Shown here in pieces: positions 14,293 to 57,192 of a DNA stretch of 60,932 nucleotides (the stretch's first letter is position 1; every line of letters starts with the position of its first letter). A program made the position numbers and the translations under genes. Under the pieces are notes generated by a model. It did not search any database. It had not been told where the DNA came from and worked only from the letters and a program-made list of their open reading frames with translations. This DNA is from Micromonosporaceae bacterium (GTDB lineage Bacteria > Actinomycetota > Actinomycetes > Mycobacteriales > Micromonosporaceae). The stretch spans positions 1-60,932 of the forward strand of contig JBOGDK010000001.1 in assembly GCA_050701795.1 (NCBI GenBank), given 5' to 3'.

Positions 14293-14330
14293 AGGGTGAA
14301 TCGGTGTTCAGTCCCGCGGGACTGGACCGT

Positions 14331-15707: not shown

Positions 15708-15717
15708 CCGGCCATCT

Positions 15718-17136: not shown

Positions 17137-17173
17137 GCCTCACCAGCCTTCCTGGTCATCCCTCTGGCAGGGT

Positions 17174-17359: not shown

Positions 17360-17466
17360 GACCTCCACTCTGCCCGATGTCCGCACCTGGTTGGCTGCCG
17401 ACATCTCGACACGCCATCGCGGTCGGCGTGTTGACCCGCCCTCACCCCACCACGTGGGATGGGTCA

Positions 17467-18024: not shown

Positions 18025-18131
18025 CGGGGGGCGGGACGGAAGTCGCACCAGGTGCCGTCGAACGGGAAGTCTCCGGCTTCGATCAGCTTCACCACCCGTA
18101 CGCGGCCGTCGTACGGGTACCGTGCCGAGCT

Positions 18132-18605
18132 GTGGAGACCTCAGACAGAGACGACCAGGCGACCGTACGGCGGGCGGACCCCCGCGACGCCGCCGCCGTC
18201 GCCGAGGTGTGGCTGAGGTCGTACGCCGCCGCCCTTCCCACCGTCCGCCGGGCACACTCCGACGACGAGGTACGAGCCTGGTTCCGCGACGTGGTGGTGC
18301 CGTCGCGAGAGACCTGGGTCGCGGTCGTGGACGGCACGGTGGCGGCCGTGATGGTGCTGCACGGCGACTGGCTGGAGCAGTTGTACGTCGACCCGCCGTA
18401 CCAGGGGCGTGGGATCGGCGGCGACCTGACCACGCTGGCGAAGCGACGCTGTCCAGGGGGCCTGCGGTTGTGGACGTTCCAGGTGAACGCGCCGGCGCAA
18501 CGGTTCTACGAGCGGCACGGGTTCCTGGCGGTGGAGCGTACCGACGGCGCCGGAAACGAGGAGCGTGAGCCGGACATCCGGTACGTCTGGCGGCCCCGGA
18601 GCTGA
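18132..18605 (+). CDS. GNAT family N-acetyltransferase
   Basis: LYVDPPYQGRGIGGDL (acetyl-CoA-binding Q/RxxGxG/A) and RFYERHGF. GTG at 18132 is preferred because codons 18021-18131 have low GC3. The ATG at 18021 (ATGA overlap with the upstream stop) is an alternative. Confidence 0.7.
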   Translation: METSDRDDQATVRRADPRDAAAVAEVWLRSYAAALPTVRRAHSDDEVRAWFRDVVVPSRETWVAVVDGTVAAVMVLHGDWLEQLYVDPPYQGRGIGGDLTTLAKRRCPGGLRLWTFQVNAPAQRFYERHGFLAVERTDGAGNEEREPDIRYVWRPRS

Positions 18606-43835: not shown

Positions 43836-44497
43836 CGATCCGTGTCCTGCTCGCCGACGACCAGTCCCTGGTACGGGCGGGCTTCGCCGAGCTGCTCTGC
43901 CGGGACGGCGACATCACAGTGGTCGCCGAAGCGGCCACCGGGACCGAGGCGATCGCCAAGGTACGCAGGCACCGCCCCGATGTCGCACTGATGGACATCC
44001 GGATGCCGGAGCTGGACGGCCTCGACGCCACCCACCGGATCGCCGGCGACCCGGAACTGGCCGGCACCAAGGTCATCGTGGTGACCACGTTCGAGCTCGA
44101 CGAGTACGTCTTCACCGCGCTGCGCGGCGGCGCCAGCGGTTTCCTCACCAAGGACGTCACCCCGGATGAACTCCGTCGCGCGGTACGCATCGTCGCCGCC
44201 GGCGACGCGTTGCTGACACCGTCGGTGACCCGCCGGGTGATCTCCCAGTACGCGGGCCGTGCCGCGGTCTCCGCGTACGACAGGGACCGACTCGCCATGC
44301 TCACCGAGCGGGAGCGGGAGGTGGTCGCCCTGGTGGCCGAGGGCCTGTCAAACTCCGACATCGGTTCCCGGCTGTACATGAGTCCGCTCACCGCGAAGAC
44401 GCACGTCAGCCGGGCGATCGGCAAGCTCGGGGTGCGCGACCGGGTGCAGTTGGTGGTGCTGGCGTACCAGACCGGCTTGGTGGCTCCGCCACGGTGA
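43832..44497 (+). CDS. Response regulator, NarL/LuxR family
   Basis: MTIRVLLADDQ...DVALMDIRMP receiver domain. LTEREREVVALVAEGLSNSDIG HTH. ATGA overlap with the kinase stop. Confidence 0.9.
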   Translation: MTIRVLLADDQSLVRAGFAELLCRDGDITVVAEAATGTEAIAKVRRHRPDVALMDIRMPELDGLDATHRIAGDPELAGTKVIVVTTFELDEYVFTALRGGASGFLTKDVTPDELRRAVRIVAAGDALLTPSVTRRVISQYAGRAAVSAYDRDRLAMLTEREREVVALVAEGLSNSDIGSRLYMSPLTAKTHVSRAIGKLGVRDRVQLVVLAYQTGLVAPPR

Positions 44498-44614
44498 CTC
44501 CCGCTCCCCGCTCCCGCACGGGCACCGCGCGGCCCGGTCGGGTGATTATCGGTGGCGCGGACGGTGGGGCTGGCGCAGACTGGCGTGGTAGGCCAAGACT
44601 CCGGGGTGTTGCTG

Positions 44615-45331
44615 ATGAAACCCGCACTCGACGCCACACCAGACCTGATCCCCGTGCTGTCCCGCGGCAAGCACCGTAACCCCCGTAAGGGCGCGTGCTT
44701 GATGGAGTTCGCCTCGTACCTCGCCGGGGAACGCTGGAGCGACCATCCGGACTGCACCCATCCGCTGCTCGCCACGCTGGCCCGTCTGGTCAACGACTAC
44801 ACCACCGACGTGGGTCGCAACCGGCTCGCGGGCCTCGCCCCCTCGGTGATCGGAGTCACCGGCGACGATCTGCGGCTGGAGGCCCGGATCGTGCTGCGCT
44901 GCGCGACGACGGCACTGCCGATCGCGTCGTACGAACGGCAGCGGGTGATGGCCGTGGCCGTCCTCACCGCGGAACGCATCCTCGCCGACCTGAACGGCGG
45001 ATGTCCCCACTCACTCACCACCCGGAGTAGCTGGGCGCTGTCCCAGGCGCCGGACGCGGCATTGTGGGCCGAACGGTTCACCCGGCGCAGCCGTACCTCC
45101 CAGCGGCGATTCCGTCGCCATGCCGCACCCAGTGCGGTGCACTTCGCGGTGGATGGGATCGCCCGCGCCTGCGTACCGGATCCTGACGCCGTCCTGTACC
45201 AGCTACTCGCGAACACGATCGACGACTGCCGCTCCCTGCTCGGCTCGCAGGCCCAGGAGTCCCCTACCGCAGTTGTTTCGGTGGCACGCGTGAACGCCGC
45301 TAGTGAGCCTCCACACCTCACCTGTGCATGA
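44615..45331 (+). CDS. Hypothetical protein
   Basis: 238 aa from MKPALDATPDLIPVLSRGKHRNPRKGACLMEFASYLAGERWSDHP. Protein-like composition and high GC3. No family recognised. Confidence 0.55.
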   Translation: MKPALDATPDLIPVLSRGKHRNPRKGACLMEFASYLAGERWSDHPDCTHPLLATLARLVNDYTTDVGRNRLAGLAPSVIGVTGDDLRLEARIVLRCATTALPIASYERQRVMAVAVLTAERILADLNGGCPHSLTTRSSWALSQAPDAALWAERFTRRSRTSQRRFRRHAAPSAVHFAVDGIARACVPDPDAVLYQLLANTIDDCRSLLGSQAQESPTAVVSVARVNAASEPPHLTCA

Positions 45332-45386
45332 TCAGCGGCAATGGGTAATGAACCCGACAAACCCCTATTTCCGGGTATGCAACTGT

Positions 45387-45404
45387 TAGCCGATCTGTCG
45401 GCTA
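45387..45404. promoter_or_regulatory. Perfect palindrome TAGCCGA-tctg-TCGGCTA in an AT-richer leader
   Basis: 7-bp arms, about 100 nt upstream of the ScyD/ScyE-like gene start. Confidence 0.3.
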
Positions 45405-45503
45405 TACGACAAATGTGCCCGAAGTATCACCGGAGCCCCGCCAGCTCGTCCGGTTCCGACGGAGACTCCCGGAAGGCTCCGTACGTGATGGAGGGGGTTC
45501 ACA

Positions 45504-46616
45504 ATGCGGAAGCTTTCCCGTTCTCTGCTGGTCGTGATCGCGGCCACCGCGAGCGTCGCGTTTTCGCTGGTCGGAGCACCAGCGCAGGCGGCTGGAGCGA
45601 CCCGTACAATCGCCAGCGGCCTCGATAATCCACGTGGCCTGACCTTCGGGCCCGACGGCTCCTTGTACGTCGCCGAGGCCGGTCGCGGCGGCACCGAACC
45701 GTGCATCACCGGCCCGGAAGGTGAGGAAGTGTGCTGGGGTTCCAGCGGCGCCATCACCAGGATCGGGCACGGAGGCACGAAGCGAGTCGTGAAGGGCCTG
45801 GGATCGCTCGCGAACCGCGACGGCTCATCGGCCATCGGGCCGTCGGACGTGTCGTTCGCCGGAAAGCACATGTACTTCACCGTCGGTCTCGGGGCGGACC
45901 CGGCGGTCCGCAACGATCTGCCGAAACGTGGTCAGCAGACCAATGGCTGGCTGCTGCACGGCAGCAAGCACAAGCTCAGCGCCGAACAGGTCGCCGACAT
46001 CGCCGGATTCGAGGCCCGACGGGACCCGGACCGCGCCGGACCCGACAGCAACCCGAACTCGCTCCTCGCCACCAGGCACGGCCAGGTGGTCGTGGACGCG
46101 GGCGGCAACACACTGCTGTGGGTGACGCGGAGCGGGCGGATCTTCAAGATCGCGCAGTTCCCCACCAGAAACGTCCCCGCCCCACCTGAGCTCGGAGAGC
46201 CTGCCGGGACCGAGATACCCATGCAGGCCGTACCGACCTCGGTGGTCTGGGGACCTGACGGCGCCCTGTACGTCGGTCAGCTGACCGGCTTCCCGTTCCC
46301 GAAGGGTGAGGCGCTGGTCTACCGGGTCGTACCGGGCAAGAAACCCACGGTGTACGCCAAGGGCTTCACCAACATCATCGACATCGGCTTCTCGGGCAGG
46401 AACCTGTACGTACTCGAGATCTCCGCCAACGGGCTGCTGTCAGGCAACCCTCAGGGCGCGTTGATCAAGGTCGGCAAGGGCTCCACGCACAAGACGGTGT
46501 TGTCCAAGGGCCTCACCATGCCGGGTGGTCTGGCGATCCGCCACGGCTTCGGCTACGTGTCCAACTGCAGCGTCTGCCCCGGTAAAGGCAGCGTGCTGCG
46601 GGTACGGCTGCACTGA
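45504..46616 (+). CDS. Secreted ScyD/ScyE-family (NHL-like beta-propeller) protein
   Basis: Signal peptide, then IASGLDNPRGLTFGPDGSLYVAEAGRGG and repeated propeller blades. Confidence 0.75.
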   Translation: MRKLSRSLLVVIAATASVAFSLVGAPAQAAGATRTIASGLDNPRGLTFGPDGSLYVAEAGRGGTEPCITGPEGEEVCWGSSGAITRIGHGGTKRVVKGLGSLANRDGSSAIGPSDVSFAGKHMYFTVGLGADPAVRNDLPKRGQQTNGWLLHGSKHKLSAEQVADIAGFEARRDPDRAGPDSNPNSLLATRHGQVVVDAGGNTLLWVTRSGRIFKIAQFPTRNVPAPPELGEPAGTEIPMQAVPTSVVWGPDGALYVGQLTGFPFPKGEALVYRVVPGKKPTVYAKGFTNIIDIGFSGRNLYVLEISANGLLSGNPQGALIKVGKGSTHKTVLSKGLTMPGGLAIRHGFGYVSNCSVCPGKGSVLRVRLH

Positions 46617-46645
46617 GTCGCACGGCGCGGTGCGCGGTCGGTTAC

Positions 46646-46672
46646 GGCCCCGCACCGACGGCGTTCGGGGCC
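46646..46672. terminator. Hairpin between convergent genes
   Basis: GGCCCCG-n13-CGGGGCC. Confidence 0.4.
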
Positions 46673-46685
46673 CGTGGCCCCACGA

Positions 46686-47186
46686 TCAGACCAGGACCGT
46701 GAGATCCCGGACGTAGGACAGTCCTGGTCGGCCGCTCAGGACAGTCTCGCCGACCGGTACGAATCCGGTGCGGGCCAACACGGCTCGGGACCCCGCGTTG
46801 TCCACGGTGGTGGACGCGCGCAGTGTCGTGAGCCCGTACTGGGTCGCGGACAGGGCGCAGACCCGTCGTACGGCGTCAGTGGCCAGGCCGCGCCCCGCGG
46901 AGCGCTCCGCGATCCGGTACCCGAGATCAGCCGAGCCGTCCGCCACGTCGATCAGGTTGACGCGCCCCACCACCGCGCCCTCAGTGTCCACCAGCACGTG
47001 GAAGTAGCACACGCCCGCGGACTGTTCCTCGAGCAGCTCGCGATGCCGGATCTCGAACCTCGCGAAGTACTCATCGCCGCGGTCAGGTATCACCGCGGCG
47101 AAGTACGCCCGGTTCTCCCGTTCGAACGCCAGGAGGGGCGGCGCGTGGTCGGGCCGGAGCAGCTCGAGTGCGGGCAGGGCGGGCAT
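46686..47186 (-). CDS. GNAT family N-acetyltransferase (RimJ/RimL-like)
   Basis: GYRIAERSAGRGLATDAV and the overall GNAT pattern. The internal ATG at 47186 is preferred. Confidence 0.75.
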   Translation of the reverse strand: MPALPALELLRPDHAPPLLAFERENRAYFAAVIPDRGDEYFARFEIRHRELLEEQSAGVCYFHVLVDTEGAVVGRVNLIDVADGSADLGYRIAERSAGRGLATDAVRRVCALSATQYGLTTLRASTTVDNAGSRAVLARTGFVPVGETVLSGRPGLSYVRDLTVLV

Positions 47187-47551
47187 GACACGAAGATTAC
47201 GTGCCAGGTTCGCGGTACCCACCCGACGGCGGGTGGGCAGTCCATCCAGTGCCTGGGCGCGCGATGCGTCGCGGGGCATCAGCACCTCTTACGACCGGCA
47301 GTCCCCAGACAAGGCCGGCTCCGGCGTGGGAGTTCGCCGATATCCCACGAAATCCGCTCAAATTGGCTTAGCCTTTCCGTGCCGCAACCGCTCCTTGCCA
47401 GCGTTGGGGAGCGCGCATCAAGCGCACTCCCCACCTGTCTGGAGCCACCACCCCGATCCGGATCGTTGCGCACCGGGTCGGAGCCACCTGGTCGATGCGC
47501 CCGGCGACGTCCACAGCCTGGGCCCCCGAGCTAGCTCGCGAGGAGTGCACG

Positions 47552-48892
47552 TTGTCAAGAAGGAGACGCCGGGTCACGGTGCAGAAGCTCACCGTCCCCC
47601 GGCTGGAGAAGGCGAAGGCCGCCTTCACGACTCGCCGAGTGCCGCGCAACCGGATGCGGACTCTGGTCAGCGGAACGGTACGTCCCCGTTCCGGTGACCT
47701 GGTGCTTGCCGCGGTGACGAGGATCGGCCAGCACCGCAAGATCGAGCAACCGAACGGACGACGCGCGATGCTGCATGTCGGTGACGAGATCCTCGTGACC
47801 TATGCCGACCGCTACGCCCCCGATCAGTTCGAGGCGCAGGTGCCCCACGATCTGGGGCGGGCGCAACTGGTGGCGGCAGGTGGCGTGGCCGCGACAATGC
47901 TCAGCCGGAGCCGGGACGTCAGGAACGCCACCGACATCCTCCCGATCGGACTCGTCGGCGACAGCTACGGCCGGGCGCTGAACCTGAGCGACTTCGGTCT
48001 CAAGGCGGTGAAACCTGATCGTCCGCGGCCGCGCACCATCGCCATCATCGGCACCTCGATGAACTCCGGAAAGACCACGACGATCCAGCACATGGTGCAC
48101 AGCCTCAGTAGCGCGGGAGTCGCGACCGGCGCCACCAAGGTCACGGGTACGGGCTCCGGCGGCGACTACTGGGTGATGCTCGATGCCGGGGCGCTTCGGA
48201 TGCTCGACTTCACCGATGCGGGGCTCGCTTCGACGTACCGGCAGCCGATATCCACCGTGGAACGCGTCGTACGGCAGTTGGTGGACCATCTGACCCACGC
48301 CCGATCGGACGTGAACTTCGTCGAGGTCGCCGATGGTGTGTACCAGCGCGAAACGGCGTTGCTGCTTCAGTCGAAAGTCTTCCACTCCCTGGTTGACGCC
48401 GTCCTTTTCACGGCGGCCGACGCGGCCGGAGCGGCAGCGGGAGTCGCCGAACTGAGGCGGGCCGGCCTCGACGTGGTCGGCGTGACCGGGCGGCTGACAC
48501 GCTCGCCTCTGGCGATTCGGGAAGCCGAACGGGCGGTTGAGCTACCGGTGTTCACCAGGGCTCAACTCGCCGACCCGAAGACAGTGTGTGAACTCATCGG
48601 ACTGAGCCCCACCCTCCTGGGGGAGGACGGCGCGGAATCGGAGCCGTGGCCCTCCAGCGGGTTGGACTGGGACGTCCCACCTGACGCGGACGTCGACGCC
48701 CCCGATGCCGAGGTCTTCGGTGCTGGTGCCGAGGATGCTGGCGCTGACAGTGCTGGCGCCAACCGTGCTGGCGCCAACGGTGCTGGCGCCAACGGTGCTG
48801 GCGCCGACGCCTCCGGTACCGACGATGCGGAACGGGCCGCTGACGAGGAGATCACCGAGCACGACGACCTCGCGGCCCCGGCTGCGATCTAG
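47552..48892 (+). CDS. P-loop (Walker A GTSMNSGKTTT) protein with an Ala/Gly/Asp/Asn pentapeptide-repeat acidic tail; family uncertain (DTBS/CobQ/DUF1611-like P-loop)
   Basis: IAIIGTSMNSGKTTT Walker A after a ~150-aa N-terminal domain. A TTG at 47552 follows AGGAG by 6 nt; GTG at 47579 is an alternative start. The last ~90 aa are low-complexity. Confidence 0.6.
   Translation: MSRRRRRVTVQKLTVPRLEKAKAAFTTRRVPRNRMRTLVSGTVRPRSGDLVLAAVTRIGQHRKIEQPNGRRAMLHVGDEILVTYADRYAPDQFEAQVPHDLGRAQLVAAGGVAATMLSRSRDVRNATDILPIGLVGDSYGRALNLSDFGLKAVKPDRPRPRTIAIIGTSMNSGKTTTIQHMVHSLSSAGVATGATKVTGTGSGGDYWVMLDAGALRMLDFTDAGLASTYRQPISTVERVVRQLVDHLTHARSDVNFVEVADGVYQRETALLLQSKVFHSLVDAVLFTAADAAGAAAGVAELRRAGLDVVGVTGRLTRSPLAIREAERAVELPVFTRAQLADPKTVCELIGLSPTLLGEDGAESEPWPSSGLDWDVPPDADVDAPDAEVFGAGAEDAGADSAGANRAGANGAGANGAGADASGTDDAERAADEEITEHDDLAAPAAI
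48721..48810 (+). repeat. Six tandem 15-bp units (TGCTGGCGCCAACGG consensus) inside the P-loop gene
   Basis: Units at 48721, 48736, 48751, 48766, 48781 and 48796; units 4 and 5 are identical. They encode (G/A)A(G/N/D)xA pentapeptides (AGANRAGANGAGANGAGAD). Confidence 0.85.
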
Positions 48893-48894
48893 GG

Positions 48895-50625
48895 GTGGCA
48901 CCGGTGAAACCCGACACGGATCTCTTCACGCTGAAACGGACCGGCGTGGCCATCGTGATCACGCTGGGAGTGCTGCAGGCCGCGGCCCTGGTCGGCTTCG
49001 TACTGCTACTGATGGCGACGGTGGACGCGCTCAAGGCGCCCACCCTGGGCCCCGCGGCGGATGCGGCCTGGAGAACCACCTTGTACCAGCTCGGCGCGCT
49101 CCTGGTGTTGGTGATGCTCCACGGCCTGCTGCGGGCGTGGGAATTCAACATCACGGAGAAGATCGGCTACCACGTGGTGGCGCGCATCCGGATGCGGATG
49201 TACCGGCACCTGCAGGGCATGATGGCCCGGCAGTTGCAGGGCCGGTCACGAGGTGGGCTGCTCCTGCGGTTCATCGGCGACCTGTCGATGCTGCGGATGT
49301 GGATCAGCCGCGGGTTCCTCGGCGGCATGGTCTCGCTGATCGTGCTGGCGGCCGCGCTGACCACATTGCTAGTGCTCAACGTGTTCATTGGGATGACTCT
49401 GGTGGCCGTGCTCTCGGCGGGCGCGGCCGTCTCGCTCACCAGCGGAGCTGCGATGCGCCGCGCGACCCGGATCATGCGCCGCCGCAGGTCGCTGTTGACC
49501 AGCAACCTGGACGAGCAGGTCAACGCCCTGACGGTGCCGCAGGTGTTCGGCCGCTCCAGAGGGGAGCACACCCGGCTCTCCCGCCAGAACAACGCCCTGC
49601 TGCGCGCGTTGTTCCGGGTGGCGGAGTTCCGCGGCCGGCTCCGCGGACTCGCGACCGCGTCGGCGTTGCTGGCCGTGGTGGCGGTGCTGCTCGTCGGCCT
49701 GGTGGAGGTACGGCGGGGAACGGCAACCCCGGGCATCGTGATAGCGGCGATCATCACCAGCCGCCTGCTCGCCACCCCGGTACGCAGGCTCGGACTGGCT
49801 CACGACTACTGGCACCGCGCCGATGTGTCGCGACGGAAGATCCTCGACTTCCTGCGCAGCTCCAGCCGGGCACTCGATCCGCCAGAGCTGGCCAAGTTGG
49901 CGGTACGCAAGGGTGGCATCGAATTCCGGGAAGTCACCGTACCCGGCGCGCTGGAGCGGATCACCGCCTCCGCGCAACCCGGCCAGCTGATCGGTGTGAC
50001 CGGTCCCAACGGGTCCGGCAAGTCCACACTGCTCGGGGTGGTGGCACGCCTCGTCGAACCCGCCGACGGTCAGGTGCTCATCGACGGGCAGATCCTCACG
50101 GAGATGACCCCCCGGTCCACCTTCCGGATGATCGGCATGGTGGGCCCGGACCTGCCGCTGATGCGAGGCACCCTACGACGCAACCTGACGTACCGGCAGC
50201 GCAACACCGACGCCGAGGAACTGCGTCGCGTGGTGTTCGCCACTGGGCTCGACCGCGTCCTCACCCAGCTCCCCGAGGGGCTGATGACCTGGCTGGTCGA
50301 GTCGGGCCGGAATCTCTCGGCCGGCCAGCGGCAGCTCATCGCGCTCGGCCGCGCCATGATCGGCAACCCGCCGATCCTGCTCCTCGACGAGCCGACCGCG
50401 GGTCTGGACGCGCAAGGCAAAGCCGACGTACGACGCACCATGGCCCGCTACCACGGGACGGTTCTTCTGGCGTCCCACGATCCTGCGGAGCTGGCGCTCG
50501 CTGACCAGGTGTGGGTGCTGGAGCGAGGCCGGGTGATCGAGACCCTCTCGGCCGACGAGTACCGCAGCCGGCTCTGGTTGACAGCGCAGAGGGAGGACGC
50601 GTGGCACCACGTAGCCGTCCATTAG
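48895..50625 (+). CDS. ABC exporter, fused permease/ATPase half-transporter
   Basis: 576 aa. Six-helix TMD, then Walker A GPNGSGKST, signature LSAGQRQ and Walker B ILLLDEP. The GTG start is 2 nt after the upstream stop. Confidence 0.9.
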   Translation: MAPVKPDTDLFTLKRTGVAIVITLGVLQAAALVGFVLLLMATVDALKAPTLGPAADAAWRTTLYQLGALLVLVMLHGLLRAWEFNITEKIGYHVVARIRMRMYRHLQGMMARQLQGRSRGGLLLRFIGDLSMLRMWISRGFLGGMVSLIVLAAALTTLLVLNVFIGMTLVAVLSAGAAVSLTSGAAMRRATRIMRRRRSLLTSNLDEQVNALTVPQVFGRSRGEHTRLSRQNNALLRALFRVAEFRGRLRGLATASALLAVVAVLLVGLVEVRRGTATPGIVIAAIITSRLLATPVRRLGLAHDYWHRADVSRRKILDFLRSSSRALDPPELAKLAVRKGGIEFREVTVPGALERITASAQPGQLIGVTGPNGSGKSTLLGVVARLVEPADGQVLIDGQILTEMTPRSTFRMIGMVGPDLPLMRGTLRRNLTYRQRNTDAEELRRVVFATGLDRVLTQLPEGLMTWLVESGRNLSAGQRQLIALGRAMIGNPPILLLDEPTAGLDAQGKADVRRTMARYHGTVLLASHDPAELALADQVWVLERGRVIETLSADEYRSRLWLTAQREDAWHHVAVH

Positions 50626-51446
50626 TGGGGCGCGCCTCCGCTCGCGGACCGCGCCCCCCGGTGAGCTACCGCACGTACGTACCGGAGCGCAACGACGGAC
50701 GTCCGGCTCTGGTCCTGGTGCACGGACGGGCCCGCGCCGCCGCGGCACTGTTCCGGGCGTTCCTGCCGATGGCGGTTGCGCGCAACGTTCCGCTGCTGGT
50801 ACCGACGTTCCCCCGTACCCGTTATCACCACTATCAACAGCTCGCAGGTGTCCAGGGTCCGCTCGCCGCACGAGGGGCGCTGCTGGCCGTACTGGAGGAT
50901 GCCCGTAGCAACCTGGGCGCCTCCGTGGACACGATCGACCTGCTCGGTTTCTCCGGCGGCGCGCAGTTCGCCCACCGGTTCGCGATGCTGACAACGACGC
51001 GGATCCGTCGCCTCGTCGTCGCCTCCGCGGGGTGGTACACGTACCTGCGGCCGGGCACACCGTTCCCGTTAGGGGCCGGTGCCAGCAGGCTCAGCGGCGG
51101 CATGCCGGTCGACGTCGAGGCGTTCCTGCGACTCCCGGTGCATGTGCTCGTCGGTGCTCTGGACACCCAGCACGGGCCTGGGCTGCGTACCAGCAGGGCC
51201 ATCAACCGGACCCAGGGCGACGACCGGCTGGTACGGGCGCTGCGCTGGCTGGACCACCTCGAGGAACGCGCGTACGCACACGACCTCGGCCCCCGGGTGA
51301 CGTTCGACCTGATGCCGGATACCGGCCACTCGTTCAGCCAGGCCGTCTTCACCGGCGGCCTGGTCGGCCGGGCGTTCGAGTTCCTCCACCCGGTGTCGCC
51401 GGACGCCATGCCCCTGCAGGAGACAGATGTGGAGCTGCTGCCATGA
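50625..51446 (+). CDS. Alpha/beta-hydrolase (esterase/depolymerase-like), no signal peptide, copy 1
   Basis: ALVLVHG and nucleophile elbow GFSGGAQFAHRF. The GTG start overlaps the ABC gene's stop (TAGTG). The start is uncertain. Confidence 0.65.
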   Translation: MGRASARGPRPPVSYRTYVPERNDGRPALVLVHGRARAAAALFRAFLPMAVARNVPLLVPTFPRTRYHHYQQLAGVQGPLAARGALLAVLEDARSNLGASVDTIDLLGFSGGAQFAHRFAMLTTTRIRRLVVASAGWYTYLRPGTPFPLGAGASRLSGGMPVDVEAFLRLPVHVLVGALDTQHGPGLRTSRAINRTQGDDRLVRALRWLDHLEERAYAHDLGPRVTFDLMPDTGHSFSQAVFTGGLVGRAFEFLHPVSPDAMPLQETDVELLP

Positions 51447-52546
51447 CCCGGGACCGGAAACTGATCACTGCGCTCACCACGCTCGCGGTGCTCGCCGCCG
51501 GCGCGGTCGTCGCCAGAGTCGTGTTCAGCGATCCTCCGGTGGCGGCGGTGCAGCGATCGGTGTCCCTGGGCTCGGACGGCCGGCTGTCCATACAGTTCGT
51601 CGGCGACACCTTCACGGGGGGCCGGGGTGAGCCCTACATCGCCAAGTACGGGTACGACTGGCCGTTCAAGAACATCACGTCGATGCTGGACGCGGACTTC
51701 ACCATCGCCACCGCCGAAGCGGCGATCACCGCGCGCAAGGGCGTCTGGAACCTGGGCAAGAAGGACGCCTACAAGACACCACCACCATCCGCCGCCGCGA
51801 TGGCGAGTGCCGGAATTGACAGCGTCACACTGGCCAACAACCAGGTTTTCGGTGCCGGGCCAGGTGGTCTGGCCGACACATTACGACATACCCGCGCCGC
51901 GGGCCTTTCCGCGTTTGGCGCCGGTTCCCGCCTTGCCGCGGCGGAGCAGCCACTGCTACTCAGGTCTGAGGTCGGCACCGTCGGCATCGTCGGGCTCGGG
52001 GAGAGCGTCGGGTTCAAGGCCTCTGACACCACACCGGGCATCGTGGTGCTCAACAGGAAGAGCATCGAACGTGGTGTGGGGATCGCCCGGGCGGCGGGCG
52101 CGGACTGGGTGGTCGCGTACGTGCACTGGGGCGAAAACTACGCGCCCATCAGCAAAGGTCAACGGTACTGGGCCGGGCTGCTCGCCCGGGCCGGGTACGA
52201 CCTGATCATCGGCAGCGGCCCGCACGCCGCGCAGCCGATCGAGGTGACCGGTTCGGTGCCGGTCGTCTACAGCCTCGGCAACTTCGTGTACAGCACCCGG
52301 GGTCAATGGGAGAACGTGGCCGTGGGCGGGGTCGGCTTGTCGGTCGACCTGGTTCTGGCACGAGACCGCAAGCCGGAGCTGTCCGCACGGTGTCTGCTGA
52401 CCGACAACGCGGTGGTGCGATACCAGCCGAGGCCGTGCACGGCTGAACAAGCACAGCGCTACCTGCCCAAGCTGCACGCCGGCAATGTGGGCAGGCAGAG
52501 CCGCAGCACCGTGCACTGCGACTGTTTCACCCGGTGGTACGAATGA
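51443..52546 (+). CDS. CapA/PgsA-like metallophosphoesterase-fold protein with N-terminal membrane anchor, copy 1
   Basis: MTRDRKLITALTTLAVLAAGAVV anchor. FVGDTF, ANNQVFGAG, YVHWGENY, GSGPH and SLGNFV motifs are typical of the PGA_cap family. ATGA overlap with the upstream stop. Confidence 0.8.
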   Translation: MTRDRKLITALTTLAVLAAGAVVARVVFSDPPVAAVQRSVSLGSDGRLSIQFVGDTFTGGRGEPYIAKYGYDWPFKNITSMLDADFTIATAEAAITARKGVWNLGKKDAYKTPPPSAAAMASAGIDSVTLANNQVFGAGPGGLADTLRHTRAAGLSAFGAGSRLAAAEQPLLLRSEVGTVGIVGLGESVGFKASDTTPGIVVLNRKSIERGVGIARAAGADWVVAYVHWGENYAPISKGQRYWAGLLARAGYDLIIGSGPHAAQPIEVTGSVPVVYSLGNFVYSTRGQWENVAVGGVGLSVDLVLARDRKPELSARCLLTDNAVVRYQPRPCTAEQAQRYLPKLHAGNVGRQSRSTVHCDCFTRWYE

Positions 52547-52602
52547 CACCAGGGGCGACCAGCGGACAGCTCCGGCGAGCGGTGACGGCGGGCCGCCGGT
52601 GC

Positions 52603-53568
52603 ATGGTCGGGTCCGTCCGGTGGCGGGTGCTCGCCGCGATGAGCTGTGTGTCGTTGCTCGCGGGCTGCTGCATCGGGCCCTCAGAAGACCCGCTCGAACG
52701 CGCCCGGTCCCACCGTGGCGGCTCGCCCGGGCCTTGCCCGGCCGCGGGCCCGGCCATCACACCCGGCGCAGGCACGTTCAGTTTCACCGGGTACGCCCCG
52801 CTCGCCGACCGACCGGTACGGGTCTGGTACGTCGCGCCCGAGGACCCCGCCACCGCCGAGATCGTGTTCGTGATGCACGGCATGGAGCGCAACGGCGAGG
52901 AGTACCGGGACGACTGGGAGGCCCTGGTACGTGGCCGCAACGTACTGGTCGTGGTCCCGGAGTTCTCCGAGGACGCGTACCCGGGAACGTCGTCGTACAA
53001 CCTGGGCAACATGGTCGACAGCGACGGCGACCCGGTCCCCGAGGAACAGTGGAGCTTCCACATCATCGAGGCGCTGTTCGACTTCGTGGTGTGCGAGGTG
53101 GGCAGCACCGCCGGGGACTACGCGATCTTCGGTCACTCGGCTGGGGCACAGTTCGTCCACCGCTTCCTGGAGTTCATGCCCGCGCACCGGGCCCGGGCCG
53201 CGGTGGCCGCCAACGCCGGCTGGTACACGTTCCTCGACAAGTCCGAGGACTTCCCGTACGGGCTCGACGGCAACCCGGTGGACGAGGAGACCACGGAGGC
53301 GGCGTTGGCGTCGAACCTGATCGTCCTGCTGGGCGCCGACGACATCGACGACGATGACGACTCGCTGAACAACGACGACCGCGCCAGGGAGCAGGGGCGG
53401 CATCGGCTGGAACGTGGGATGCGCTTCTACCTCAACGCGCGCGCCCTCGCCGATCGCGAGTCCGTACCGTTCGGCTGGCGGCTGGCCACGGTGCCGGGGA
53501 TCGCCCACTCACACACGGACATGGCGGCGTACACGGCGTCACTGCTGTTCGACCGTAAGGACCCATGA
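52603..53568 (+). CDS. Lipoprotein alpha/beta-hydrolase, paralogue of 50625-51446, copy 2
   Basis: MVGSVRWRVLAAMSCVSLLAGC lipobox. GHSAGAQFVHRF elbow and ANAGWYTF align with copy 1 (GFSGGAQFAHRF, ASAGWYTY). An alternative ATG at 52543 overlaps the capA-like stop (ATGA). Confidence 0.7.
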   Translation: MVGSVRWRVLAAMSCVSLLAGCCIGPSEDPLERARSHRGGSPGPCPAAGPAITPGAGTFSFTGYAPLADRPVRVWYVAPEDPATAEIVFVMHGMERNGEEYRDDWEALVRGRNVLVVVPEFSEDAYPGTSSYNLGNMVDSDGDPVPEEQWSFHIIEALFDFVVCEVGSTAGDYAIFGHSAGAQFVHRFLEFMPAHRARAAVAANAGWYTFLDKSEDFPYGLDGNPVDEETTEAALASNLIVLLGADDIDDDDDSLNNDDRAREQGRHRLERGMRFYLNARALADRESVPFGWRLATVPGIAHSHTDMAAYTASLLFDRKDP

Positions 53569-53582
53569 GCACCAGGGGTACG

Positions 53583-53646
53583 CGGCGTTCGACCTGATGC
53601 CGGACACCGGCCACTTGTTCAGAGATAGATGTGGAGCCACTGCCAT
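53583..53646 (+). pseudogene. Relic of the 3' end of a copy-1-type hydrolase gene upstream of the second capA-like gene
   Basis: GCGTTCGACCTGATGCCGGACACCGGCCACTTGTTCAG...AGATAGATGTGGAGCCACTGCCATGA matches 51301-51338 plus 51418-51446, with the ~80 nt between those two blocks missing. It would encode AFDLMPDTGH versus TFDLMPDTGH. Confidence 0.75.
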
Positions 53647-54748
53647 GACCCGGGACCAGAAACTGATCACCGTTCTCACCGCGATTGCCGTACTGGCCGG
53701 AACGATGGTGGTGGCCAGAATGGCTTTCAACGACCCACCGCCGGTCAAGGCGGTGGAGCGTACGGTCGACGTGGGCCCGGACGGGCGTTTGTCCATACAG
53801 TTCGTCGGCGACACGTTCCTCGGCGACGCAGCACAGCCCTACCTCGACAAGTACGGGTATGACTGGCCGTTCAAGAACGCCAAGGCGATGCTGAACGCGG
53901 ACTTCACCATCGCCACCGCCGAGGCCGCGATCACCTCGCGTGTCGGACTCCTGAATCCGGGCAAGAAGTACGCGTACGCGGCGAAGCCGGCAGCCGCCCC
54001 GGCGATGCGCCGGGCGGGGATCGACGCCGTGACGCTGTCGAACAACCACGTCTTCGACGCCGGCGCGAAGGGCCTGGCCGACACGGTGCGACACACCCGG
54101 AGAGCGGGACTCGCGTCGTTCGGTGCGGGCCGCAACGTCGCTGAGGCGGAGCAGCCACTGCTGCTCAAGTCCTCGATCGGCACGGTGGGCATCGTCGGGA
54201 TCGGGGAGAGCTTCGGGTTCACCGCTAGAGACGACGCCGCAGGAACGGTCGTGCTCAGCACGGAGAGCGTCCAGCGCGGGTTGGCTCTGGCGCGCGCGGC
54301 GGGTGCCGACTGGGTCATCGCCTACGTGCACTGGGGAGACAACTATTCACCAATCAACAAGCCGCAACGCCGGTGGGCTCGGGAGTTCGTACGCGAAGGT
54401 TACGACCTGGTCATCGGGAGCGGTCCTCACAGTTCACAGGGGATGGAGGTGATCGACTCGGTACCGGTCTTCTACAGCATCGGCAACTTCGTGTTCGGTG
54501 CCCCCGGCCGATGGGCCAGCTACAACCTGCCGGGAATCGGCCTGTCGGTGGAGCTGGAACTCGCGAAGCACCGCAAGGCCCAGCTGTCTGTACGGTGCCT
54601 GCTGACCGACAACGTGATCGTCGGGTACCAGGCGAGGCCCTGCACGGCGAACGAGACACGCCGCTACGTCACCGATCTCCACCGGGACATAGTGGTTAAG
54701 GGGCGCCACGCGGTGATGCCTTGCGACTGCTTCCGGGAACGCCACTGA
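53645..54748 (+). CDS. CapA/PgsA-like metallophosphoesterase-fold protein with N-terminal membrane anchor, copy 2
   Basis: MTRDQKLITVLTAIAVLAGTMVV anchor. Colinear with copy 1 along the full length (FVGDTF, SNNHVFDAG, YVHWGDNY, GSGPH, SIGNFV). Confidence 0.8.
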   Translation: MTRDQKLITVLTAIAVLAGTMVVARMAFNDPPPVKAVERTVDVGPDGRLSIQFVGDTFLGDAAQPYLDKYGYDWPFKNAKAMLNADFTIATAEAAITSRVGLLNPGKKYAYAAKPAAAPAMRRAGIDAVTLSNNHVFDAGAKGLADTVRHTRRAGLASFGAGRNVAEAEQPLLLKSSIGTVGIVGIGESFGFTARDDAAGTVVLSTESVQRGLALARAAGADWVIAYVHWGDNYSPINKPQRRWAREFVREGYDLVIGSGPHSSQGMEVIDSVPVFYSIGNFVFGAPGRWASYNLPGIGLSVELELAKHRKAQLSVRCLLTDNVIVGYQARPCTANETRRYVTDLHRDIVVKGRHAVMPCDCFRERH

Positions 54749-54809
54749 TGCCCGGCTCGGTCATCACCCCCGGCGCGGGGAAGTTCATGGTGTCGGGATC
54801 GGCGCCGCC

Positions 54810-55811
54810 TCAATCGGTGGCCAGCGGCTCGACGAGGTCGTCTGCCGGACGTGATGCTGAAGCCGGCTGAAGCCGTCGCGGCATCAGCTCGATGGTCTGT
54901 ACCAACCAGAAGACGGCGAAGAGCAGGGCTACAGCTATCTCGAGCCAGAAGATGCTGATCACTTCGAGCCTCCACAGGGCGACCCCGCTCACGGCGACGA
55001 GAACCAGCAGCACGGCGATCCAGTGGTAACGATTCCGGGTCGGCGTGTCGACTACCAGGCGCAGCGGCCGCTCATCGTGGCGACGCGCGTTGGCGACGGC
55101 GACCACGAGAACACACACCAACAGGCCGACGGCGGTGGTGAAATGCGCATAGTCGATAAGCCATTCGATGCGGACGATGAAGGCAACCGTTCCCACCACC
55201 CACACAAGCAGAGCGAGGCCGAATCCCCACCAGAATTCCGCCCCGAAACGCCCCCGGCCCCTCCGCTTGAACACCACAGCGAGGCACACAGTGGCGACCA
55301 GACCCAGCAGGCCCATGACCAGCAGCGCGAAGATGTTGTTCTCGACGTTCGCCCTGGTGGCGACGGCCAGGGCCTGAACCGTGGGGCAGTCCGTGTCCGT
55401 GAGCAGGGGGCTGTCCGCCTGCTCGCAGATCGCAACGGCCGCCCGGTAATCCTGGATCCGCGAGGTGGGAACGATCGCGACCACGGCCGCGAAGATGCCG
55501 CCCAGGTTGAGAAGAACCTCCTCCACACTGGTCGTGCCCTTCAAGGCGATCATGCACGCGCCGAGACCGATGAGGGCACCAACGAAGATCGCTTGTGCAG
55601 GGGTGTAGTAGTACGCACTCACCGACGGCAACGGTCGGAATCCCTGGTGCGAGGTCTGGTAGAACACGGCTGCCCCTAAGCCGACCAGCAGAGCGACCAT
55701 CGCCGTTCGCAGGTAGCTGTAGGACTTCACCCAGATGTCGTTGTACAGCTGTGCCTCAGTTGAGGAGTTGGCCTGGCCCGCCGGAACGGCTTCTCGAACA
55801 TCCCCAGACAT
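54810..55811 (-). CDS. Polytopic membrane protein, unknown family
   Basis: 333 aa, about 7-8 hydrophobic helices, high GC3. Confidence 0.6.
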   Translation of the reverse strand: MSGDVREAVPAGQANSSTEAQLYNDIWVKSYSYLRTAMVALLVGLGAAVFYQTSHQGFRPLPSVSAYYYTPAQAIFVGALIGLGACMIALKGTTSVEEVLLNLGGIFAAVVAIVPTSRIQDYRAAVAICEQADSPLLTDTDCPTVQALAVATRANVENNIFALLVMGLLGLVATVCLAVVFKRRGRGRFGAEFWWGFGLALLVWVVGTVAFIVRIEWLIDYAHFTTAVGLLVCVLVVAVANARRHDERPLRLVVDTPTRNRYHWIAVLLVLVAVSGVALWRLEVISIFWLEIAVALLFAVFWLVQTIELMPRRLQPASASRPADDLVEPLATD

Positions 55812-56033
55812 CTCGAAACTCCTATGTGTCGTTCCGGTCCACCAGGACAGCGGAGATGGTCAATGTGGAGGCACGTGGCCGTGTAACGGATCTACAGCCC
55901 CTGGACGGCGTTGTCAACGCTTGTCCACCTGCTCGTGAAAGGGGCCGATCAGCTGCGATCCGGTTCGCGCGGCATGCGGTAATCGCCTACACCTGACGAC
56001 CGATGGAGGAGCAACTCTCAGCCTGGCGATCTC

Positions 56034-56050
56034 GCGGAAAGCGTTTCCGC
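56034..56050 (-). terminator. Hairpin immediately 3' of tRNA-Val
   Basis: GCGGAAA-gcg-TTTCCGC, 11 nt beyond the tRNA 3' end. Confidence 0.45.
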
Positions 56051-56060
56051 TGGACGGGTG

Positions 56061-56135
56061 TGGTGGGCGCGGCTGGGTTCGAACCAGCGACCCCTCGCTT
56101 GTAAGGCGAGTGCTCTTCCACTGAGCTACGCGCCC
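56061..56135 (-). tRNA. tRNA-Val (anticodon TAC), CCA encoded
   Basis: The reverse complement folds as a cloverleaf. Acceptor stem GGGCGCG/CGCGCCC; D arm GCTC/GAGC; anticodon stem CTCGC/GCGAG with loop CTTACAA; T arm GCTGG-TTCGAAC-CCAGC; then ACCA. Confidence 0.9.
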
Positions 56136-56219
56136 GCTGGCTGGCGGCAAGATTACCCTGCCGCCAGCGTACGGCTCATCCCGGTTCCCCACCCGTACGG
56201 CTCGGAGCCGGGCCCGTTG

Positions 56220-56687
56220 TCAGACCTCCGCGACCTCGGACAGCGCCTTCTTCCATCCGCCCTGGTCACGGGCATCGCCGGGCATGTTCATCTCCGCGAA
56301 CCGGACCACGCCCTGCTTGTCGATCACAAAGGTGCCGCGGTTGGCGATGCCGGCGGTGTCGTTGAACACCCCGTACGCCTGGGCGACTGAGCCGTGCGGC
56401 CAAAAGTCCGACAGCAGCGGGAAGTCGAGATTCTGCTGGTCAGACCAGACCTTGTGGCTGTACGGCGAGTCAACACTGACCGAGAGCACCTGCACCTCGT
56501 CGGTGCTGAAGTCGCTGAGGTTCTCCTGGACCTGGCACATCTCACCCTGGCAGACCCCGGTGAAAGCCAGTGGGTAGAACACCAGCAGGACGTGCTTCTT
56601 GCCAGCGAAGTCGCCGAGCGAGACCTCCTGGTTGTTCTGGTCCTTCAGGGTGAATTCTGGCGCCTTCGTACCCACCTCGATCGGCAT
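56220..56687 (-). CDS. ahpE: AhpE-like 1-Cys peroxiredoxin
   Basis: 155 aa from MPIEVGTKAPEFTL. Active site FYPLAFTGVC. The upstream 70 codons of the track ORF were rejected. Confidence 0.85.
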   Translation of the reverse strand: MPIEVGTKAPEFTLKDQNNQEVSLGDFAGKKHVLLVFYPLAFTGVCQGEMCQVQENLSDFSTDEVQVLSVSVDSPYSHKVWSDQQNLDFPLLSDFWPHGSVAQAYGVFNDTAGIANRGTFVIDKQGVVRFAEMNMPGDARDQGGWKKALSEVAEV

Positions 56688-56757
56688 GTGGTCCCTTTCC
56701 GGCTTGTCGGTCGCATCGTGATACTCAACCGATCCTAGAAAGCCGGAACGGGAACGC

Positions 56758-57192
56758 CTAACGCCGGTTACGGGATGTGCGCGGCGCCACGAGTCGGGCA
56801 CCCACCCAGTCCCGGCCGACGCTGACACTCGAGGTCTGCTGCAGCCCTGCGGTCGGGGTCGACTCGCTGATCTCACTCGGCTCGACGTGGCCCTCACGTC
56901 CGGCCTTCGGCGTCAGCAACCAGATCACCCCGGTATCAGCCAGCGGTGTACGAGCGTCCATCAGGGCGTCCACCAGGTCACCGTCGTCGTCACGCCACCA
57001 GAACAGCACGACGTCGACCACCTCATCGGTGTCCTCGTCGACGATCTCGCCACAGCGGTCGATCACGACGTCGCGAAGCTCGGAGTCGACATCGTCGTCG
57101 TACCCCACCTCCATGACGACCATGTCCGGCTCCATACCAAGCCGGTCCGCCAGGCTCTTCAGGCCGTCGGCCTGACCAGCGGTCGCGCTCAC
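56758..57192 (-). CDS. DUF3052 domain protein (Rv2239c-like)
   Basis: 144 aa. VVMEVGYDDDVD...VVLFWWRDDDGDL...IWLLTPK pattern. Sits next to ahpE, as in mycobacteria. Confidence 0.75.
   Translation of the reverse strand: MSATAGQADGLKSLADRLGMEPDMVVMEVGYDDDVDSELRDVVIDRCGEIVDEDTDEVVDVVLFWWRDDDGDLVDALMDARTPLADTGVIWLLTPKAGREGHVEPSEISESTPTAGLQQTSSVSVGRDWVGARLVAPRTSRNRR

Follow-up and report, generated by a model that had tools for sequence, protein, structure and literature searches.

What purpose do poly(aspartic acid) (PAA) hydrolases serve in nature, and what is the role of an orphan CapA protein where PgsB and PgsC, known with it from poly-γ-glutamate (PGA) synthesis, are missing? Both questions are made testable by a six-gene operon in a 60,932-nucleotide (nt) stretch of DNA from a Micromonosporaceae bacterium (assembly GCA_050701795.1, contig JBOGDK010000001.1); the whole of this stretch is referred to below as the window. 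The operon consists of six + strand open reading frames (ORFs) arranged head to tail at 47552-54748, whose existence and order were confirmed on the sequence. In gene order, it encodes a P-loop protein (g1), an ATP-binding cassette (ABC) half-transporter (g2), a hydrolase (hyd1), a CapA protein (CapA1), a second hydrolase (hyd2) and a second CapA protein (CapA2). We find that the operon is real, widely conserved and undescribed, and its content suggests a PGA-like envelope system made from different parts, closest in its working to PGA. The reading we prefer, to which we assign a probability of roughly 0.4, is that the operon serves the synthesis or activation, export, extracytoplasmic epimerisation and trimming of a β-aspartyl-type acidic poly- or oligo-amino-acid, in a PGA-like manner without PgsB and PgsC.

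The hydrolases give the locus its wider interest. PahZ1, the enzyme to which they are related, represents the only polyaspartate-cleaving enzymes known. It has been studied solely as a degrader of a synthetic polymer, and the searchable literature does not discuss what it acts on in nature or what it does for the cell. The six-gene arrangement is likewise not described in the openly searchable literature; subscription-only papers (the original Hiraishi cloning papers and a 2016 review), which might mention the flanks of pahZ1, lie outside that scope.

Conservation of the operon

We surveyed 80 loci from named genomes, obtained with the six window proteins by tblastn and by iterated hidden Markov model searches of all ORFs. 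Seventy-two of these loci had at least 2 kb of downstream sequence and could be scored, with hydrolase and CapA genes counted within 8 kb. The ABC gene lies directly downstream of the P-loop gene in all 72, which come from Actinomycetota, Alpha- and Gammaproteobacteria and one cyanobacterium. A PahZ1-family hydrolase is present in 51/72, CapA in 47/72 and both in 44/72. The P-loop/ABC pair is therefore the invariant core and CapA an accessory, and the hydrolase and CapA make a recurrent functional pair, tied to the module of nucleoside triphosphatase (NTPase) and ABC exporter in at least 44 of the scorable loci.

The typical actinobacterial order is P-loop, ABC, (hyd1), CapA, hyd2, and it is found in Pseudonocardia, Arthrobacter/Pseudarthrobacter, Microbacteriaceae, Intrasporangiaceae, Propionibacteriales, Acidimicrobiia and Thermoleophilia. 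Sphingomonad loci carry hyd2 and CapA upstream of P-loop, ABC and hyd1; Nitrosomonas and several gammaproteobacteria have P-loop, ABC and hyd1; and Hoeflea, Pseudoalteromonas and Xenococcus have the P-loop/ABC pair only. Conservation of the gene neighbourhood had been named as a check in the original prediction, an earlier reading of the window made from its sequence; on running it, we find a gene order that recurs in dozens of unrelated genomes, far beyond chance. The system occurs widely, in soil Actinomycetota, in sphingomonads and in marine Proteobacteria, and its ancestral unit comprises four to five genes.

In the closest relative of the window locus, L082, the P-loop protein is 76% identical to g1 and the flanking genes differ from those of the window. 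Because the flanks differ even in this comparison, the cluster is a self-contained, portable module. Clustering of the ORFs in the 80 related loci revealed no further gene family conserved beside it.

Two lineage-specific elaborations were seen in the survey. In Arthrobacter sp. AL12 (L016), a second, inverted P-loop/ABC pair (15284-18192, minus strand) lies just downstream of the first cluster, and its P-loop protein is ~47% identical to that of the window; paralogous core pairs can thus coexist in one genome. In sphingomonads, a conserved ORF of ~312 amino acids follows hyd1 (L035, 9092-10030, and 13 other loci). Its match to OMP_b-brl (22 bits) is below the cut-off, and it may be an outer-membrane component.

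Two hydrolases of the PahZ1 family

Neither hyd1 nor hyd2 matched any Pfam family, even at E<=10, and public annotations of these proteins read 'hypothetical', 'alpha/beta hydrolase' or 'PHB depolymerase' (PHB, polyhydroxybutyrate). Family profiles, built from orthologues and searched against the PDB, were far more informative. The hyd2 profile (A4) matched 6ve6 (PahZ1 KT-1) at 1.9e-94, 9o7u (PahZ1 KP-2) at 5.7e-81 and 3d0k, which is annotated LpqC, at 2e-67. The hyd1 profile (A3) matched the same three structures, in the order 9o7u (2.7e-38), 3d0k (1.3e-32) and 6ve6 (8e-32). Pairwise, hyd2 is 43.8% identical to PahZ1 KT-1 over 256 amino acids and hyd1 ~30% only; the published screen for PahZ1 homologues took in proteins of ~40% identity or more.

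The catalytic residues are retained in both proteins. PahZ1 KT-1 has the triad S157/D225/H280 and an arginine, R246, that specifies the β-linkage (PMC13017698). In hyd2 the active site comprises Ser199 (in GHSAG), Asp267, His322 and Arg288, numbered from a start at 52543, and in hyd1 Ser110 (in GFSGG), Asp180, His235 and Arg201; R288 and R201 are the equivalents of R246. The serine, aspartate and arginine are invariant in both family alignments, and the histidine is invariant among hyd1-type and nearly so among hyd2-type proteins. On these profile and residue matches, hyd1 and hyd2 are assigned to the PahZ1 poly(aspartic acid) hydrolase family, in place of the generic esterases or PHB depolymerases suggested originally, and this membership points to β-aspartyl rather than γ-glutamyl chemistry.

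What is known of PahZ1 comes from two river bacteria growing on thermally synthesised PAA: the periplasmic enzyme cleaves β-Asp-β-Asp amide bonds, and breakdown is completed by the M28 peptidase PahZ2 (PMC13017698). PahZ1 KP-2 requires L-Asp in subsite 1, and its best substrate bond is the β-linked (L-Asp)-(D-Asp) (PMC4456602). Four further homologues, with TM-align identities to KT-1 of ~45-93%, were tested and all degrade PAA (PMC13017698, 2026). The same paper notes that Brevifollis gellanilyticus has a protein in which PahZ1 and CapA-like domains are naturally fused, and is silent on operons, gene clusters, neighbours and natural substrates (PMC13017698).

The two proteins are predicted to work on opposite sides of the membrane, as had been anticipated from their sequences (a cytoplasmic-looking GFSGGA and a lipoprotein GHSAGA hydrolase). 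In this genome hyd1 has no signal peptide or hydrophobic segment and is basic, with an isoelectric point (pI) of 10.6. Hyd2 carries a lipobox, LLAGC, and its mature form is acidic (pI 4.4-4.5), as are its actinobacterial orthologues (median pI 4.85). Across the family, hyd1-type proteins are always basic, and hyd2 and CapA are acidic in Actinobacteria and basic in sphingomonads, although bulk pI is an ambiguous proxy for polyanion binding.

CapA proteins and a local duplication

CapA1 and CapA2 match PGA_cap (PF09587) with 155 and 182 bits, respectively, and each has a single N-terminal transmembrane helix (residues 5/6-29; 6-29 in CapA1), in line with the two membrane-anchored proteins originally proposed. 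They are 62% identical in amino acid and 72% in nucleotide sequence, and they differ in an active-site motif. CapA2 has a complete set of active-site motifs (GD, E, NNH..D, HWG and GPH). The His/Asp dyad of NNH..D is kept in CapA2 and in all 50 orthologues examined, and CapA1 has NNQ..G at this place. The equivalent residues of the peptide epimerase MslH are the catalytic His88 and Asp91 (PMC10406935). CapA2 could be aligned to MslH (8gq9) with 42 bits and ~30% similarity over two segments, which cover NNH..D, H and GPH; at the position of MslH H261 it has G (in HWG), like all orthologues. In MslH itself, the metal ligands and two His/Asp dyads comprise D11, E44, N87, H88, D91, H259, H261 and H295. 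The NCBIfam MslH model scores the CapA proteins at 34-49 bits against a cut-off of 700. [quoted passage not shown]

The original prediction described two hydrolase-CapA pairs. Both pairs are present in the window, but they are not a conserved unit, and CapA2 is a recent local duplicate. The sixth gene is identified as a local duplication because the closest relative locus, L082, has five genes and one CapA. The gap in front of capA2 is a gene relic, as had been proposed: 35 of 37 nt at 53586-53622 are identical to the hyd1 codons TFDLMPDTGHSF (51301-51337; ..FDLMPDTGH..), the very end of hyd1 is matched by the 22 nt that close the gap, and ~83 nt are deleted internally. This is a relic of the 3' end of hyd1, carried along with the capA duplication. 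CapA2 is the lineage-specific duplicate and CapA1 the copy in the ancestral position. The motif differences suggest that CapA1 is catalytically dead or has acquired a new function, and that the duplicate CapA2 now carries the activity.

Two further observations concern these genes. The relic and the first codons of capA1 and capA2 (51443-51475, 53645-53677; 53586-53644) are ~95% identical in DNA sequence, and the gene bodies 72%; the near identity of the 5' regions hints at gene conversion, or at a conserved element for translation initiation or coupling upstream of capA. In Pseudonocardia aurantiaca JCM 11838 (L003, 13190-17173), three tandem CapA copies lie between hyd1 and hyd2, and the middle copy has ATDH, not NNH. 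These copies are independent of those in the window, and CapA amplification followed by motif drift seems to recur.

The P-loop protein

The g1 protein has an all-β N-terminal domain (residues ~1-158), an NTPase domain (~159-355) and an acidic low-complexity tail (366-446). The NTPase domain is of the SIMIBI (signal-recognition/MinD/BioD) class and resembles BioD, MobB and DUF1611_C, with the Walker A motif GTSMNSGKTT and a VEVADG motif. No Pfam or NCBIfam model matched g1 above its cut-off; AAA_26, MobB and DUF1611 each reached ~16-17 bits, essentially over the Walker A region. AAA_26 scored 17 bits against a cut-off of 27. DUF1611_C (PF07755) scored 16 bits against a cut-off of 25, with only residues 160-202 aligned, and the relatives of g1 reach 20-24 bits at best. 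DUF1611_N is absent, and residues 1-158 had no Pfam match at E<=10 across 22 family members. The suggestion that g1 might belong to DUF1611 therefore captured a resemblance, and NCBI labels relatives 'DUF1611 domain-containing', but membership fails on both DUF1611 domains. The proposed D-Glu link through DgcN, the DUF1611 member reported as a D-glutamate N-acetyltransferase, loses its support with it. The DUF1611 resemblance is real but superficial, and the literature on DUF1611, DgcN and PgsA epimerisation yielded nothing usable.

The family to which g1 belongs is nonetheless large. A word-indexed search returned 1626 homologues, the best 120 of which are 55-76% identical over the first ~360 residues; 1766 representatives of 50%-identity clusters were found at E<=1e-3, and 288 species-representative genomes among those scanned encode a relative. 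An AlphaFold2 model built from an 89-sequence alignment (mean predicted local distance difference test score, pLDDT, 96; predicted template modelling score, pTM, 0.92) has an all-β N-domain followed by a P-loop α/β domain. In a Foldseek search of the PDB, the P-loop domain alone found matches, all of them SIMIBI proteins: dethiobiotin synthetase, SRP54/FtsY, HypB, MeaB, CTP synthase and the DUF1611 structure 2g0t. The dethiobiotin synthetases 3of5, 3fgn and 1dts gave template modelling scores of 0.57-0.62 (E ~1e-6 to 1e-5, root-mean-square deviation ~5 Å), with similar scores for SRP, HypB and MeaB; a Mur ligase was not among the top 50 matches. The sole PDB match of the full family profile was MobB (E=0.036), with motif-level agreement at Walker A and G-x-D-x-W...AGA.

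Within the N-domain, R70, D78 and E94 are invariant, and at least 90% of the family share R28, R87 and Q92. Its profile gave only insignificant S1/CSL4-like 'GDxVxAxV' matches (E>=0.06) against the PDB and Pfam, and a PanD-like double-psi barrel was rejected (hhalign probability 0.6%). A fusion ('Rosetta stone') search among long P-loop homologues returned extensions without informative domains and one transposase artefact. A 429-residue 'CbiA-faint' protein encoded upstream in L081 was considered as a paralogue and rejected. Thus g1 is the founding member of a large, highly conserved, unnamed family with a novel all-β N-domain. Even on a conservative reading of the operon, this is a large and conserved family that is unannotated and has an obligate ABC partner.

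The tail is a separate matter. The Walker A of the original prediction, IIGTSMNSGKTTT, stands, and the 'pentapeptide-repeat tail' is corrected to a tandem repeat with a 15-nt unit, encoding (A/G)GAN(G/R)-type repeats in a disordered (pLDDT <50), non-conserved segment that is missing from homologues. It is lineage-specific and rich in Ala, Gly, Asn and Asp.

The ABC transporter

The domain matches of g2 agree with the exporter-type half-transporter that had been described. ABC_membrane (66 bits) and ABC_tran (89.5 bits) lie in one polypeptide, the transmembrane domain before the nucleotide-binding domain, which is an exporter architecture, and the Walker A, signature, Walker B and H-loop motifs are all intact. 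The best NCBIfam matches (LssB, CydC and MsbA) score 196-213 bits against equivalog cut-offs of >300-700, so that g2 is no equivalog of any named NCBIfam family. A link to cyanophycin was considered and dismissed: NCBIfam CphA_assoc_ABC scored 131 bits, with its cut-off at 880, and was surpassed by the generic exporter matches.

Catabolic PahZ1 loci

The surroundings of PahZ1 genes proper provide a point of comparison. Close homologues of PahZ1 KT-1 (60-87% identity) sit in plainly catabolic loci with genes for a TonB-dependent receptor, PahZ1, an M28 peptidase (PahZ2-like), an SDF dicarboxylate/amino-acid symporter, an Asparaginase_2 protein (isoaspartyl-peptidase family), a D-amino-acid oxidase (DAO) and an S58 (DmpA/BapA-type) peptidase; more distant homologues (52-55%) adjoin M20/M28 peptidases. 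From this gene content we infer a natural environmental nutrient with β-linked and D-Asp residues. The context, which resembles that of polysaccharide utilisation loci (PUL-like), is not described for pahZ1 in the searchable literature. The sphingomonad examples (L083-L085, from metagenomic and genomic contigs) also contain D-Ser-dehydratase-like genes.

In L084, the stop codon of pahZ1 is overlapped by a periplasmic PGA_cap gene, the product of which carries every motif of the set and shares 32% identity with CapA2 across the entire domain, C-terminal extension included. PahZ1 and CapA are therefore linked in three independent ways: in the Brevifollis fusion, in the catabolic locus L084 and in the operon of the window.

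The P-loop/ABC pair is absent from the catabolic loci. Conversely, a tblastn search of the catabolic proteins against 83 sequences found them in L046 only; they are absent from the window and from the other 81/82 P-loop loci. In L046 (Sphingorhabdus rigui DSM 29050, 750-15900), genes for an SDF symporter, a TonB receptor, a PahZ1-like protein and a PahZ2-like M28 peptidase abut a P-loop, ABC, hyd1 ... CapA cluster, which makes this locus a natural case for asking whether both modules deal with one substrate. Where sphingomonads possess the P-loop cluster, it forms a unit of its own.

Proposed function and alternatives

On the reading that we prefer, the operon would work in four steps. First, the cytoplasmic P-loop protein would use nucleotide to activate or ligate a building block, perhaps held by the conserved, charge-rich N-domain. 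This role is suggested because the fold is of the BioD/MobB/DUF1611 type and members of the BioD class form C-N bonds. SIMIBI enzymes of the BioD/CobQ/CTP-synthase type do so via phosphorylated intermediates, and Mur-ligase-type P-loop domains also carry out C-N bonding, of β-Asp in cyanophycin synthetase and of γ-Glu in PgsB. Second, the ABC half-transporter would move the product across the membrane; its architecture and its adjacency to g1 are observed, and direction and cargo are presumed from them. Third, anchored CapA, most likely a metal-dependent epimerase in view of the activity of MslH and the published proposal for CapA in PGA synthesis, would introduce D-residues into the polymer outside the membrane. 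The motif set would make CapA2 the competent copy, CapA1 being without the catalytic His/Asp dyad. Fourth, the PahZ1-type hydrolases, with hyd2 working outside the cell membrane and hyd1 within, would trim, release or recycle the polymer, with a probable specificity for β-Asp-Asp bonds because their characterised relatives prefer β-linked L-Asp-D-Asp. Exopolymer operons commonly carry their own depolymerase, as with pgdS/capD, algL and bcsZ.

Several observations favour this scheme: (i) The catabolic Asp genes are absent from the window and from 81/82 other P-loop loci, yet surround bona fide PahZ1. (ii) Hyd1 and hyd2 keep the triad and the equivalent of R246. (iii) The families nearest to g2 are MsbA, CydC and type I secretion system (T1SS) transporters. 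(iv) The P-loop/ABC adjacency is invariant in the scored loci, and the cluster is portable. (v) PahZ1 and CapA are linked in the three ways given above. The general idea of the original prediction, export or remodelling of an envelope polymer, is consistent with these findings.

A more specific version of the scheme is that the cluster makes a natural homopoly(amino acid), a secreted or surface-bound β-linked D/L-polyaspartate that would supply the 'poly(aspartic acid) hydrolases' with their long-missing natural substrate. Its making would involve a new class of polymer synthetase (the novel β-domain with a BioD/MobB-like NTPase), dedicated ABC export and CapA-type epimerisation. We consider this version unlikely, and its consequences would be considerable: the very few microbial poly(amino acid)s on record would gain a new member, a new class of polymer synthetase would come to light, and a biodegradable polymer in industrial use would have a biological route.

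A number of points weigh against our preferred reading: (i) Its weakest link is the role of the P-loop protein, for which the computed evidence fits an enzyme and a nucleotide switch alike. The ligase role is proposed by analogy, and the closest sequence match, MobB, is a GTP-binding adaptor, not a ligase; in the structural model, too, Foldseek does not separate enzyme-type from switch-type SIMIBI relatives. (ii) The P-loop/ABC pair stands alone in 18/72 loci, so that the function of the core does not depend on hydrolase or CapA. (iii) Every characterised PahZ1 is catabolic and periplasmic (PMC13017698). (iv) Actinobacterial hyd2 and CapA ectodomains are acidic (pI ~4.4-5), whereas characterised PahZ1 binds its polyanion by a cationic surface, and the position of PahZ1 H230/H231 is occupied in hyd2 by an acidic, Asp-rich stretch, DDIDDDDDSLNNDD. 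(v) Hyd1-type proteins carry signal peptides in some Gram-negative loci, so that an intracellular role is not general. (vi) Natural free poly-β-aspartate has never been reported, and reviews list polyaspartate as synthetic. (vii) The biochemical roles given to the cluster proteins are putative, drawn from homology and gene context.

Some of these points would also fit an operon that uses the same machinery on a different substrate, such as a poly-β-malate-type polyester, a γ-Glu or mixed isopeptide, or an acidic peptide linked to lipid or peptidoglycan, its hydrolases and CapA having diverged in specificity. The identities to PahZ1 (~30% for hyd1, 44% for hyd2) leave room for such divergence, hyd2 is acidic and without the His pair used for PAA binding, and the core occurs without hydrolase or CapA, as said. 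PahZ1 is itself related to PHB-depolymerase-type esterases (a weak NCBIfam match, and 3d0k as LpqC), and PGA_cap members act on γ-Glu polymers and on the C-terminus of lasso peptides. The β-Asp-positioning arginine is, however, invariant in both hydrolase families; homologues with a pI of 6.3-6.8 still degrade PAA; and no glycosyltransferase, polyhydroxyalkanoate synthase, ATP-grasp protein or non-ribosomal peptide synthetase is conserved nearby. Among the alternatives we rate this one highest, as doubtful but worth keeping in mind.

The catabolic character of PahZ1 could instead mean that the operon serves uptake: hyd2 and CapA would depolymerise and epimerise an environmental β-Asp/D-Asp polymer or aged isoaspartyl peptides, the ABC protein would import the oligomers, and hyd1 and the P-loop enzyme would finish breakdown or salvage. 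A cytoplasmic PahZ1-like hyd1 would suit imported oligomers, KT-1-like PahZ1 genes do lie in nutrient-acquisition loci, one of them with an adjacent periplasmic PGA_cap gene, and in L046 the catabolic block directly abuts the P-loop/ABC cluster. That abutment is confined to L046, however, and the separation of the two locus types elsewhere argues the other way: the catabolic partner genes are missing from the window and the other loci, and the sphingomonad catabolic loci are without the P-loop/ABC pair. There is also no solute-binding protein, the ABC protein has an exporter architecture, and a BioD/MobB-like NTPase has no obvious catabolic role. Importers with the exporter fold are rare, IrtAB and Rv1819c being examples. 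We regard uptake as improbable, somewhat more so than a change of substrate.

The weak matches of CapA to MslH and the likeness of the ABC protein to bacteriocin/T1SS exporters would also accommodate a ribosomally synthesised, post-translationally modified peptide (RiPP), that is, a small unannotated precursor that the P-loop enzyme and an MslH-like epimerase would modify, the hydrolases cleave and the ABC protein export. This is very unlikely. No conserved small ORF or RNA element lies upstream, where the 267-nt gap gave spurious high-GC ORFs only; CapA and hyd2 are extracytoplasmic and would come into play once export has taken place; a peptidase domain is missing from the ABC protein; and there are no RiPP recognition or cyclase genes. 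Least credible of all is a split canonical PGA locus with PgsB and PgsC encoded elsewhere, for although the PGA_cap scores are good, the operon has no PgsB or PgsC, the 80 related loci share no extra conserved family, the hydrolases are PahZ1-type rather than γ-glutamyl hydrolases or γ-glutamyltransferase (GGT), and CapA is accessory to the P-loop/ABC core.

Gene junctions and surroundings

The genes of the operon are tightly coupled, in agreement with the unit originally described (Table 1). At g1/g2, the TAG stop (48890-48892) is separated from the GTG start by 2 nt. At g2/g3, the TAG stop (50623-50625) and an in-frame GTG overlap as TAGTG, and at g3/g4 the TGA stop (51444-51446) and the ATG overlap as ATGA. 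The capA1 stop is TGA at 52544-52546, and the in-frame ATG at 52543, noted previously as a possible start, would give hyd2 an ATGA overlap as well. That ATG exists, but the database start is the ATG at 52603, from which translation yields a textbook lipoprotein signal, MVGSVRWRVLAAMSCVSLLAGC, ending in LLAGC. Coupling by overlap is thus optional here: g4 and g5 overlap by 4 nt or are separated by 56 nt, because both starts are possible, and GTG 52534 is a further alternative. A gap of 76 nt, which is the relic, separates the hyd2 stop from the capA2 ATG. The operon begins with a TTG that has GGAG 7 nt upstream, and the residues right after this start are conserved among homologues.

Table 1. 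Coordinates of the operon, of elements within it and of neighbouring features in the window.
Feature	Coordinates	Strand	Description
Operon	47552-54748	+	six ORFs
g1	47552-48892	+	P-loop protein, 446 aa, cytoplasmic
Tandem repeat	48718-48809	+	15-nt unit, 6.1 copies, 84% matches, TRF score 121; in g1 tail
g2	48895-50625	+	ABC half-transporter, 576 aa
g3 (hyd1)	50625-51446	+	divergent PahZ1-family alpha/beta hydrolase, 273 aa
g4 (CapA1)	51443-52546	+	membrane-anchored PGA_cap protein, 367 aa
g5 (hyd2)	52603-53568	+	PahZ1-type hydrolase lipoprotein, 321 aa by database gene call (P0271)
hyd1 3'-end relic	53569-53644	+	now capA2 leader
g6 (CapA2)	53645-54748	+	membrane-anchored PGA_cap protein, 367 aa
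Flanking ORF	44552-45331	+	259 aa, without Pfam match
Flanking ORF	45504-46616	+	370 aa, without Pfam match; hydrophobic, signal-peptide-like N-terminus
GNAT gene	46686-47285	-	bounds the operon upstream
Membrane-protein gene	54810-55811	-	333 aa, hydrophobic, without Pfam match; bounds the operon downstream
tRNA-Val	56061-56135	-	anticodon TAC

The tRNA-Val was the sole result of an Rfam scan of 44000-57000, and neither a riboswitch nor a leader was found upstream of g1; scans with promoter and terminator consensus sequences gave nothing exceeding shuffled expectation. The tRNA-Val gene lies 1.3 kb 3' of the operon, and after it come AhpC/TSA-family and DUF3052 genes, on the minus strand.

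Comparison with known systems

The closest relatives of the individual parts each differ from the window operon in an instructive way. Hyd2 aligns with PahZ1 KT-1 and KP-2 over the whole catalytic domain and is likewise extracytoplasmic, and hyd1 is a more distant member of the family; the PahZ1 genes, in contrast, occur in catabolic loci with a TonB receptor and PahZ2 and without P-loop/ABC, and hyd2 differs in being acidic and in lacking H230/H231. Like the operon, the sphingomonad PAA-catabolic locus encodes a hydrolase of the PahZ1 family and, in L084, a periplasmic PGA_cap protein next to it, whereas its TonB receptor, M28, Asparaginase_2, DAO, S58 and SDF genes have no counterpart in the window. 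CapA2 keeps the equivalents of MslH (8gq9) N87, H88, D91, H259 and H295, together with the N-terminal GD and E. Unlike MslH, both CapA proteins are membrane-anchored and extracytoplasmic, no lasso-peptide genes accompany them, and CapA1 is without the equivalents of H88 and D91. The P-loop protein has a SIMIBI P-loop domain and a GT-x4-GK[TS] Walker A in common with DUF1611/DgcN (2g0t), BioD and MobB, but it falls below the family cut-offs and has an unrelated all-β N-domain, and those families do not share its obligatory pairing with an ABC exporter.

The most telling comparison is with the PGA systems, PgsBCA(E)/CapBCA with PgdS or CapD. None of the six proteins matched the Mur_ligase, PgsB or PgsC/CapC models, so that the absence of PgsB and PgsC, noted originally, holds; the operon thus has neither the Mur-ligase-type PgsB nor PgsC, and it has an ABC transporter for export. 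For depolymerases it has serine hydrolases of the PahZ1 type instead of a DL-endopeptidase or GGT, and the expected linkage is β-Asp, not γ-Glu. What the two have in common is a membrane-anchored PGA_cap protein with its catalytic domain outside, and the same polymer-type logic, in which an NTP-dependent enzyme of the cytoplasm is combined with a membrane step and the operon brings its own dedicated depolymerase.

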